Assembly: GCA_964550665.1 (NCBI GenBank)
Contig: CAZJZW010000002.1
Location: forward strand, 1 to 31,661
Direction: 5' to 3'
DNA from: an uncultured Candidatus Saccharibacteria bacterium
GTDB taxonomy: Bacteria; Patescibacteriota; Minisyncoccia; Phycocordibacterales; CSBR16-119
Length of the DNA stretch: 31,661 nt
Part shown: in pieces, positions 13,180 to 18,293 of the stretch
Position numbering within the stretch: the first letter of the stretch is position 1
Layout: each line of letters starts with the position of its first letter
Translations under genes and position numbers: made by a program
Notes under the pieces: model-generated
Told to the model about the DNA's origin: nothing
The model's input: the letters and a program-made list of their open reading frames with translations, nothing else
Databases searched by the model: none

Positions 13180-13650
13180 ATGGAAAGAGACAAAATTCTT
13201 TTAACGTGGGAGGCCTTTGAATATCAAGACAAAAAAAGAAAACCTGATTGGTTTTGGGCTCTTGGTATTATTGCTGTTGCTGGTAGTGCGGTTTCTTTTA
13301 TTTATGGCAATTTCCTTTTTGGCATCTTCATCATTTTAGCTGGCGCAGCAATGTTTTTCTTTGGAACAACAAAACCACACAAGATAAAGCACCGAATAAC
13401 CACCGAGGGGGTGGTTTTTGATGGGCGACTTTATCCTTACGAGAGACTAAAATCTTTTTGGATGGAAGAACTGGCTGGAGAAAAGAGGCTTATCATAAAG
13501 TCAGATAAAACGTTTATGCCGATAATGGTTATGCCGTTTGAAGACGACGAGACCGGTGAAGATATTTATTCGATACTTTCTGAGGTTCTCGAACAAGAAG
13601 AAATCCATGAATCCTTTGCTCATAAAATAATGGATCGACTTGGATTCTAA
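13180..13650 (+). CDS. Conserved-looking membrane protein (two TM helices plus a PH-like soluble domain)
   Basis: LTWEAFEY..KRKPDWFW, TM hairpin, then ITTEGVVFDGRLYPYERLKSFW. Confidence 0.8.
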   Translation: MERDKILLTWEAFEYQDKKRKPDWFWALGIIAVAGSAVSFIYGNFLFGIFIILAGAAMFFFGTTKPHKIKHRITTEGVVFDGRLYPYERLKSFWMEELAGEKRLIIKSDKTFMPIMVMPFEDDETGEDIYSILSEVLEQEEIHESFAHKIMDRLGF

Positions 13651-13680
13651 TAAAACACCCATTTTCGTGGGTGTTTTATT
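13649..13680 (+). terminator. Intrinsic terminator
   Basis: aataaaacaccca-ttttcg-tgggtgttttatt. Confidence 0.8.
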
Positions 13681-13710
13681 TTTGGGTAAAATATTGTACT
13701 ATCACCTTGA

Positions 13711-13782
13711 GCTCTCGTCGTTCAATGGATAGGACATGACTTTGCGGAAGTTAAAATGTAGGTTCGATTCCTACCGGGAGCA
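13711..13782 (+). tRNA. tRNA-Arg(GCG)
   Basis: GCTCTCG/CGGGAGC acceptor stem, anticodon stem TGACT/AGTTA, loop TTGCGGA, T loop TTCGATT. Confidence 0.9.
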
Positions 13783-13805
13783 CAAAATGAATATAATGAA
13801 TTTTG

Positions 13806-14018
13806 TATTCCGGTAGGAATCGAACAAGAAGGGGGTCGGGGAAACATTTGTTTCCCCGTAGAGGAAAACAGTGAGCTTTGCTCGTGTTAGAAACCGTGGG
13901 TTTCTAAATAGCAAGCTTCGCTTGCGAGTAAGATAGCCTGCCTGCCGGTAGGCAGGCGAAGCGTCCTACCGGGAGCACAGATGAATGAACGAAATGAGAG
14001 GCGATTCCTATCGGAATA
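13806..14018. mobile_element. tRNA-Arg-associated hairpin-rich element bounded by copies of the tRNA T-arm/3' end
   Basis: Inverted T-arm copy at 13810-13825, direct 3'-end copy at 13964-13979, degenerate third copy at 14002-14018, and four internal hairpins. Confidence 0.6.
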
Positions 14019-14044
14019 ACCCATTAATTTTAAAAGTACATAAT

Positions 14045-14614
14045 ATGAAAAATATTGTAATAATAGGAGCAATAGTAGTATTAGTTTTAGCTTTCTTTGT
14101 CTCAAAAAAAATTACACCAGGGAGAGAACAGCCTGTGAGCGAAGAAGTTGTTGCTACCCCGTCAGAGGAAGTTATCGTAGAAAATAAAGGCGCCAGTGAA
14201 ACAACTACAACAGAAAAACCCGTGGTAGATAACAAATATTCTTATACAAATTCTGAATTTAAGTTTGCTGTTGATTTACCGAGTCTAGTCGCTACAAGAA
14301 AAACTGACACACCAGAATACATAACAGCAACCTTTACATTTGGGGCTGGAGACCAGTCAGGCATAGCGGAAGAAAAGCGTATACCAAATAGTATGGCTTT
14401 ATATATTTGGAATGATAATTCTGAGTTTAAAAAAATGACGGCTGAAGCAACAGAGCTTCCTGGTGAAAAAATAAATGGGACAAACTTTGAGGTGTATTCT
14501 TTTTCAAATGAAGGAGAGACTATATATCACTATACTTTAGAGGTTGGTAATAAAATATACGATGTTGGTGTTAGAGAAAAGCAGACTATGAATAAGTTTT
14601 ACATGTTAAAATAG
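14045..14614 (+). CDS. Membrane-anchored or secreted hypothetical protein
   Basis: MKNIVIIGAIVVLVLAFF signal anchor, E/T/P-rich linker, then a globular domain. The upstream ATG at 13985 lies inside the repeat element. Confidence 0.8.
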   Translation: MKNIVIIGAIVVLVLAFFVSKKITPGREQPVSEEVVATPSEEVIVENKGASETTTTEKPVVDNKYSYTNSEFKFAVDLPSLVATRKTDTPEYITATFTFGAGDQSGIAEEKRIPNSMALYIWNDNSEFKKMTAEATELPGEKINGTNFEVYSFSNEGETIYHYTLEVGNKIYDVGVREKQTMNKFYMLK

Positions 14615-18070: not shown

Positions 18071-18143
18071 CCTCTCGTAGCTCAGTTGGTAGAGCAGCTC
18101 CCTTTTAAGGAGACGGTCGTTGGTTCAATTCCAACCGAGGGGA
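18071..18143 (+). tRNA. tRNA-Lys(TTT)
   Basis: CCTCTCG/CGAGGGG acceptor stem, D arm AGCTCAGTTGGTAGAGC, anticodon loop CTTTTAA, T loop TTCAATT. Confidence 0.95.
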
Positions 18144-18144
18144 C

Positions 18145-18188
18145 AATAAGAAAAATCTCTGACTTTTTAGTTAGAGATTTTTCTTATT
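18145..18188 (+). terminator. 19-bp stem hairpin after tRNA-Lys
   Basis: aataagaaaaatctctgac-ttttta-gttagagatttttcttatt. Confidence 0.75.
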
Positions 18189-18193
18189 GATTT

Positions 18194-18293
18194 CCGAGGG
18201 AGGAATTGAACCGAAGGCGCCCATTTTTAAAGAGTGAAGCGATTATAAAAATGGAGCGTTTCGACCAAAGGGAGAGGCGATTCCAACCGAGGG
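18194..18293. mobile_element. tRNA-Lys-associated element bounded by copies of the tRNA T-arm/3' end
   Basis: Inverted ggaattgaacc at 18202-18212; direct attccaaccgaggg at 18280-18293 (equals tRNA 18128-18141). Confidence 0.55.

Follow-up and report, generated by a model that had tools for sequence, protein, structure and literature searches.

The gene for tRNA-Arg(GCG) in the genome of an uncultured Candidatus Saccharibacteria bacterium (0.59 Mb; G000 below) is followed by a short tract of hairpins and repeated pieces of the gene's own 3' end, which raises the question of what this tract is and how it came to carry copies of its neighbor. The locus lies in a stretch of 31,661 nucleotides, referred to here as the window. 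The first-pass annotation had proposed a non-autonomous element of about 200 bp with ends copied from the host tRNA, and this description holds: the unit recurs in many genomes, with arms that follow the adjacent tRNA. The unit is one member of a family of DNA modules, widespread in the ultra-small CPR bacteria, that are short, rich in hairpins, and protein-less. No published description of the family was found in the literature searched, and it is apparently undescribed there.

Anatomy of the unit behind tRNA-Arg(GCG)

The target gene is intact (13,711-13,783, + strand; ARAGORN, and Rfam RF00005 at 58.1 bits), and the copies derived from it, all read on the + strand, were delimited with a repeat finder. 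The gene's own 3' end, from nt 60 to the discriminator plus CA, constitutes the first direct copy (s1, 13,769-13,784) and is followed by a trailer, spacer X (13,785-13,809), that contains no terminator. The antisense arm (13,810-13,825) is a perfect reverse complement of tRNA nt 53-68 (13,762-13,777), lies 32 nt away from that match, and ends at its 3' side with the complement of G53. The motifs ACAAAAT and ATTTTGT at the two ends of spacer X lengthen the hairpin between s1 and the antisense arm past a 4/3-nt internal loop (GAGC/ATT).

Behind the antisense arm is the type-1 conserved core (13,826-13,934, + strand), which was delimited by its match to the covariance model R1, by copy alignments A1 and A2, and by pair counts. 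The model match itself covers 13,816-13,929 (105.7 bits, E = 8e-25). The core is made up of purine-rich joining strands and the stems P2 (13,837-13,858), P3 (approximately 13,872-13,884), P4 (13,887-13,907), and P5 (13,911-13,925), and its tail reads GTAAGAT, where the consensus is GTGAGAT. The features that define type 1 are all present in the window copy: stems P2 and P4, the strands GGGGUC and GGAGGA, and arms derived from the adjoining gene. Four hairpins had been listed at first (13,837-13,858, 13,887-13,907, 13,911-13,925, and 13,936-13,957); all are present, and the small P3 hairpin is a fifth.

The hairpin at 13,936-13,957 is a 22-nt G+C-rich palindrome, delimited by BLAST and copy comparison, which interrupts the AGCGAAGCG mini-hairpin of the core tail. 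It is treated as a separate, nested palindrome because it is missing from every other type-1 copy and recurs elsewhere. Dispersed G+C-rich palindromes of 20-22 nt and the same CCTGCC..GGCAGG type occur in this genome at C19:144-164, C7:4645-4670, C38:169-196, and C29:4998-5017, as well as in genomes of other families (G011, G022, G032, and G037), where they are partly 100% identical, and the palindrome is twice found nested in hairpins of other elements.

The unit closes with a perfect sense copy of the tRNA 3' end (s2, 13,964-13,979), identical to 13,769-13,784 at 16 of 16 positions and comprising the last 14 nt of tRNA-Arg plus CA. Both arms thus match tRNA-Arg over 16 nt, as the first-pass annotation had stated for the reverse complement and the direct copy alike. 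Immediately downstream is the remnant of a second element (13,980-14,032, + strand; repeat finder), whose right end, GAGAGGCGA, is shared with a type-2 element behind tRNA-Lys in the window. In the remnant, GAGAGGCGA is followed by a decayed third copy of the tRNA end (s3, 14,002-14,018) and then by a flank that mirrors 13,792-13,822. Since s3 follows the same GAGAGGCGA as in the tRNA-Lys unit, it marks the right end of another unit, most of which has been lost. The third copy had been described before as one side of a near-perfect terminal inverted repeat with 13,806-13,822; the copy is there, and its pairing extends over 31-nt arms (14,002-14,032 with 13,792-13,822) at 77%. What had been overlooked is the conserved core family, the nested character of the palindrome at 13,936-13,957, and the second-element remnant behind the third copy.

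In the predicted fold, pairing between s2 and the antisense arm closes the core, so that the arms would bound a multi-helix junction; the fold of the unit has a z of -6.3 relative to shuffled sequences. With the tRNA included, the antisense arm is predicted to compete for the T-arm of tRNA-Arg.

Misassembly of the unit, a doubt raised in the first-pass annotation, is unlikely because Logan contigs of four runs, all from one study that is perhaps the window's own source and therefore not independent, reproduce 13,749-14,500 without a difference or an alternative joint. A search for transcript evidence found the locus only in DNA runs of one study, and runs in which a small share of the locus was matched probably matched the tRNA itself.

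Several known features were considered for the unit and set aside. Rfam was searched with 13,500-14,200, both with gathering scores and with E values as high as 10; only the tRNA was above threshold, and no other match was relevant. A 12-bit match to the permuted tmRNA was regarded as noise, and the genome has a normal tmRNA. A small open reading frame in the core, in which a Shine-Dalgarno-like GGAGGA precedes GTG, was rejected because the P3 region differs in length or is missing among copies, and no reading frame is therefore kept. Integron attC sites need IntI and an imperfect hairpin that has R''/R' sites (RYYYAAC ... GTTRRRY) at its inner foot. In this case, the hairpin formed by tRNA and antisense arm has GTT/AAC at its outer end, nt 53-56 are missing from the sense arm, and the one tyrosine recombinase of the genome is the Xer-like enzyme described below; an attC origin was dropped.

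The tRNA itself is of some interest. The usual anticodon of bacterial CGN arginine tRNAs is ACG, and in this genome it is GCG, which is conserved in at least five related genomes. The retention of GCG among relatives suggests, from the gene sequences, that A34-to-inosine editing is not used in this lineage.

A conserved core with arms matched to each target

When 13,784-14,032 was compared by BLAST with 40 relatives, only the middle (approximately 13,812-13,937) was matched, often several times per genome, and the type-1 core was found in this way in 23 of 41 relatives. The covariance model R1 of the ~105-nt core was built on the 30 copies of alignment A1 and used to search 151 genomes of the order, of which 65 carry the core in 1-14 copies each; among 150 further genomes, a sample from the remainder of the phylum, 11 have it. 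Hundreds of loci that differ in their repeats have this core in common. The first-pass annotation had proposed both a covariance model of the internal hairpins and a survey of other tRNAs and genomes, and the recurrence that it anticipated is what was found.

The core stems are kept by compensatory changes. Among 59 distinct copies, 98% of cells in the two modeled stems are paired, and cells changed on both sides of a stem number 49, compared to 13.8 in shuffles, none of 500 of which reached the observed value; slid controls were also far lower. Conservation also extends to core sequence beyond the stems, across more than 50 families. In P2, G.U pairs on the + strand outnumber A.C mismatches by 11 to 4, a weak hint of selection on + strand RNA, and some P2 loops are GNRA; the same count for P4 is unreliable, as the register of that stem shifts. 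Similarity between cores is 0.75 at different targets within a genus, 0.71 at the same target across genera, and 0.67 at different targets across genera.

Fifty-eight copies were read in detail, of which 42 lie 19-67 nt behind a co-oriented tRNA, with 16 tRNA identities represented. The BLAST matches had each been found some 50-60 nt downstream of a different tRNA, namely Lys, Arg (GCG, UCU, and CCU), Ala, Met, Leu, Glu, His, Gly, Asn, Gln, Asp, and Thr. At these 42 loci, the longest exact match of an arm to the tail of its own tRNA has a median of 13 nt for the antisense arm and 16 nt for the sense arm, compared to medians of 6 and 5 nt (95th percentiles of 11 and 8) for the tails of other tRNAs. 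The expectation that the copies would vary with the adjacent tRNA is thereby borne out, and it is seen at the level of a single nucleotide in G013, where C66 of the tRNA has changed to T (along with G7 to A) and the matching change is present in both arms. The remaining copies are stacked behind other units, or lie behind tmRNA, at the 3' ends of protein genes, or at two gene 5' ends. The 3'-end group consists of rpsI (contig C4 of this genome, G002, and G036), rpmG, and rplL, and the 5' ends belong to an HMA-domain gene and a glycosyltransferase gene; at all of these sites, too, the arms are taken from the adjoining gene. All 42 tRNA-linked copies and all five copies at ribosomal-protein 3' ends are co-oriented with the gene, and the two 5'-end units are divergent to theirs. 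Copies are solitary or in stacks of 2-3, and no arrays were seen. One truncated type-1 copy behind tRNA-Glu (L020, G012:C60) is followed, in the last ~25 nt before the contig end cuts it off, by a CUGAUGA..GACG stretch that, judging by the motif, looks like a hammerhead ribozyme core.

The junctions between arms and core are fixed across copies. On the left, the arm stops with the complement of G53; on the right, it starts from nt 57. The last letters of the core, GUGA, face the left-arm GAAC to give two Watson-Crick pairs and a tandem G.A. The spacer is conserved in places as well. The Arg(GCG) unit of genus g4 keeps the spacer design of the window, including the GAGC/ATT internal loop, and this non-complementary block breaks the tRNA:antisense hairpin in three genomes. 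In most copies, the stretch from tRNA to unit contains a terminator-like hairpin that has a T-run. The direct repeats often extend into trailer and terminator, reaching lengths of 27-71 nt, with 70 of 71 positions identical in the youngest copy, and these long repeats look like on-site duplication in which the core occupies the joint. The hairpins that flank the unit on its two sides are, at many tRNAs, unrelated in sequence.

Other units are present in the same genome. About 11 of some 32 scorable tRNA/tmRNA genes have a downstream copy of their own 3' end of 13-26 nt, which is more than chance because the longest exact match in an upstream-flank control is 8-9 nt; two thirds of the tRNAs have no element. 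The unit cores are of at least three unrelated types. The type-1 core occurs only at the Arg locus of the window and at the rpsI locus. Behind tRNA-Lys(UUU) (18,071-18,144) is a unit (18,145-18,290) consisting of a terminator, a partial antisense T-loop arm, a core, and a sense copy. Its core of ~70 nt is unrelated to type 1, ends in GAGAGGCGA, and is followed by a 14-nt copy of the tRNA 3' end, and in G001 and G005 the tRNA-Lys locus holds a type-1 core instead. A third core type is common to seven other loci of this genome, and its antisense arm is split by a hairpin. Within this genome, neither long-range copies of tRNA ends that could bracket cargo nor two sites with near-identical copies were found. 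A further dispersed intergenic repeat, of ~100 nt, was observed just upstream of promoters (L002 ~1600-1720, which is G000 C4:30250-30370); it occurs at many loci of genus g1, with several copies per genome in G001, G005, G006, and G007.

Occupied and empty sites and the search for a partner protein

The tRNA-Arg(GCG) site differs among members of the same genus. It is empty in G001, G004, and G005, holds a type-1 unit in G000 and G007, is truncated in G006, and carries another core type in G002, and the element is therefore dispensable and turns over quickly. The empty site of G004 contains the outer parts of the G007 tRNA-Arg spacer. In the contigs of the four runs, which drop rare variants, neither an empty allele nor a circle joint of the window unit was present, and no insertion or excision event was seen directly.

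The rpsI locus gives the clearest boundaries. In G007, which is empty at this site, the gene is followed by its terminator and then by unrelated DNA. In G000 and G002, the same terminator is present, and antisense arm, core, and sense arm come directly after its T-run. As the empty site keeps the terminator, the terminator is host DNA and the insert is arm-core-arm; insertion at this locus took place downstream of the host terminator and not by crossover within the gene end. The arms of these two rpsI units carry an older gene sequence that is still found in G001, G003, and G005 and is not the present sequence of G000, and they were therefore copied from the gene at that time.

These boundaries bear on the earlier suggestion of a minimal attL/attR island, with which they do not agree. 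One trait of such islands, a direct repeat of the gene 3' end on both sides of the insert, is present in the window and at the 42 tRNA loci. Crossover inside the gene end, with the original trailer after the distal repeat, is absent at rpsI and tRNA-Arg, as is an integrase in the element or tied to it. The statement that no integrase is nearby was correct: the sole Phage_integrase-family match of the genome is Xer-like and lies on contig C1, with none in the window, and the genome's one serine recombinase is on contig C21, not near the unit.

A partner encoded elsewhere was sought by co-occurrence in 41 genomes. The IS110 DEDD domain (PF01548) was found in none of them, with control genomes positive, and neither was the Nop domain (PF01798), although a divergent Tas may escape that model. 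TnpB (PF07282) was found in two, neither of this family. Y1 transposases (PF01797) were present in 19 of the 41 and in none of the eight genomes of this genus, and neither a tRNA nor a core adjoined the four Y1 loci examined. Group-II-like reverse transcriptases occur patchily in 16 of the 41. This genome has two free-standing group-II-intron-like reverse transcriptase genes, at C21:1003-2145 (+, 380 aa) and at C25:6679-7671 (-, 331 aa), the latter adjoining rplS and a LAGLIDADG endonuclease gene; they were dropped as partners, their homologues being patchy among relatives. No gene beside the copies examined was seen as a partner, and no co-occurrence pattern (IS110, TnpB, Y1, Nop, or reverse transcriptase) fits, so that the recombinase or reverse transcriptase suggested in the first-pass annotation as a possible companion does not track the family.

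Possible routes of spread and relation to known systems

The arrangement to be explained is a ~105-nt core between an antisense left arm and a sense right arm of a gene end. The arms pair with each other, and arm-core-arm is therefore one long stem-loop; the left arm is also able to pair with the T-arm of the tRNA itself. The account that we favor, and hold to be somewhat probable, is a non-autonomous element spreading by copy-choice synthesis at hairpin-forming, heavily transcribed gene ends, its arms being written from the target. The arms would be made from the target on arrival of the core, the likely route being template-switch (copy-choice) DNA synthesis by host enzymes. The gene end would thereby come to stand in three copies, direct, inverted, and direct, the first joined to the second by a hairpin and the second to the third by the core; later switching among the repeats may keep the three copies alike, and recombination of the two direct copies may lead to clean loss. 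Such a triplet is a signature of template switching, which is why copy-choice spread is favored. Template switching can create, maintain, and re-perfect hairpins (PMC8794818) and can yield direct-inverted-direct triplications at short inverted repeats (PMC4689423, PMC10766183). Beyond the observed anatomy, specificity, turnover, and rpsI boundaries, both the act of switching and the origin of the core in each event are our inference.

Several observations count against copy-choice spread. It does not account for where the core comes from at each new site. The conserved GAGC/ATT block looks selected, and a simple snap-back origin of the antisense arm, which fits rpsI and loci with a fully palindromic spacer, fails where a non-complementary block separates the arms. 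The hairpins around the unit are unrelated at many tRNAs, unlike a fresh duplication, and cores of one genus resemble each other only slightly more than do cores at a shared target in different genera. Conservation outside the stems is not explained by template switching and points to a sequence-specific partner or a function as RNA. A broader formulation, to which we give tentative weight as the less likely of the two, is a new, self-addressing kind of mobile element, in which the folded core is inserted at hairpin-forming gene ends with freshly templated antisense and sense copies of the target. Its terminal repeats would be written anew from every site, either by host replication and repair alone or by an unrecognized enzyme that reads the conserved T-loop GTTC.

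The unit may instead, in line with the alternative folds suggested in the first-pass annotation as possible regulators of tRNA maturation, be a functional part of the tRNA transcript, as a 3' trailer whose alternative folds control processing, stability, or termination, or from which a small RNA is released in the manner of rtT RNA in the E. coli tyrT operon, with its spread as DNA secondary. The shared orientation of the tRNA-linked and ribosomal-protein 3'-end copies fits such a role, as do the missing terminator in the window, the modeled fold and the predicted rivalry of the antisense arm for the T-arm, core sequence and stems conserved across an order, the + strand G.U excess, the GNRA loops of some P2 stems, and arms that alter in step with the tRNA in G013. 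This is nevertheless unlikely: same-genus loci are empty, truncated, or occupied by an unrelated core, two thirds of tRNAs have no element, a terminator-like hairpin with a T-run stands between tRNA and unit in most copies, the two 5'-end copies are divergent to their genes, and the rpsI arms are out of step with the gene. Less probable still is a guide-bearing non-coding part of nucleic-acid-guided recombination, in which the arms would address both target strands for an enzyme of an unrecognized family, encoded elsewhere or by a phage or plasmid. The fixed T-loop junctions and a conserved scaffold abutting antisense and sense arms of 11-20 nt to adjacent target parts speak for guides, as does the sharing of one scaffold by many different targets, and CPR systems with guides pairing both strands are known (PMC12045711). 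Against this are the protein searches above, in which IS110 DEDD and Nop were found in 0 of 41 genomes and TnpB in 2, and the lack of a gene beside the copies examined; moreover, known guides do not overlap and pair as the two arms do, the sense arm often continues 27-71 nt into the trailer, and a fixed guide cannot give arms matching each new target unless it is rewritten at insertion. That the unit is the scar of an integrase-mediated element, with attL and attR at the tRNA 3' end and an interior deleted down to ~200 bp as in a CIME, is highly improbable. It would account for a tRNA 3'-end direct repeat that begins in the T-loop, for the stacking of units in tandem at some loci (L023), and for the choice of targets, yet the interior is a conserved core found at hundreds of loci with different repeats, the antisense arm is left without explanation, the rpsI filled/empty pair puts the host terminator before the insert and not after the distal repeat, and the genome's one Xer-like tyrosine recombinase and one serine recombinase are not near.

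Known systems resemble the modules in part. The 3' ends of tRNA genes, rpsI, rplL, and rpmG are classic integrase targets, used as sites by streptococcal ICEs and IMEs. Integrative elements and CIMEs share with the modules these targets and tmRNA, a gene kept whole by a direct repeat, and tandem stacking; the modules differ in having no integrase, one core at dozens of targets, and an extra antisense copy, and the rpsI module, unlike a CIME, lies after the host terminator and not within the gene. RtT repeats are structured units behind an E. coli tRNA gene, each with a copy of the tRNA 3' end. The RtT/rtT RNA of the E. coli tyrT operon (RF00391) thus resembles the modules in its repeated structured units but has no antisense arm, and it is confined to a single locus, with no dispersal with target-matched arms; a cmscan search of 13,500-14,200 gave no RF00391 match at E up to 10. 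The rtT transcript has been reported to be tied to tyrT processing (10.1101/2024.07.17.603846). The bridge RNA of IS110/IS1111, seekRNA, and TIGR guides also combine a folded non-coding scaffold with two short segments, one per target strand, but the module arms are longer, overlapping, and mutually pairing, the sense arm runs into the trailer, and there are no arrays. With respect to TIGR-Tas in particular, no Nop-domain Tas (PF01798, 0 of 41) and no dual-spacer array were found. The omega RNA of TnpB/IscB likewise has a scaffold followed by 16 nt of flank-like sequence, but no TnpB or IscB gene accompanies the unit.

REP/BIME, REPIN, and MITE sequences are, like the modules, short, protein-less, hairpin-rich, multi-copy, nested, and located after genes. 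They differ in that the terminal inverted repeats of the modules are local copies of the target and the direct repeats are long rather than short target-site duplications. Similarly, the Y1/RAYT-type transposase of REP-RAYT, IS200/IS605, and PATE elements is absent from this genus, and module direct repeats are 16-71 nt. A parallel in arrangement to copy-choice spread is found in ODIRA-type inverted triplications and tandem inversion duplications, in which the second of three copies is inverted and the junctions lie at sequences that form hairpins (PMC4689423, PMC10766183); template switching homogenizes the arms (PMC8794818). Those rearrangements are kilobase-scale and have no foreign DNA at the junctions, unlike the modules, which involve a 16-70 nt segment and always have the core at the second junction.

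In practical terms, the modules break assemblies at tRNA genes and mimic att sites and partial tRNA genes, and they are worth masking or annotating in CPR genomes. Several contigs of this genome end within tRNA genes or trailing elements, with ends that are shared (C28/C38, C29/C22, and C21/C38 of G000), and the units appear to break the assembly there. Should every insertion indeed write its arms from the target, DNA would be moved without an element-encoded protein and without ever breaking the essential neighboring gene, which would explain how genomes of only 0.6 Mb tolerate such units at one in three tRNA genes. The modules would then also be a natural case of template switching building long, perfectly paired hairpins around a conserved structured core. 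If the core acts as RNA, it would be a widespread new player in tRNA expression across a large part of bacterial diversity.
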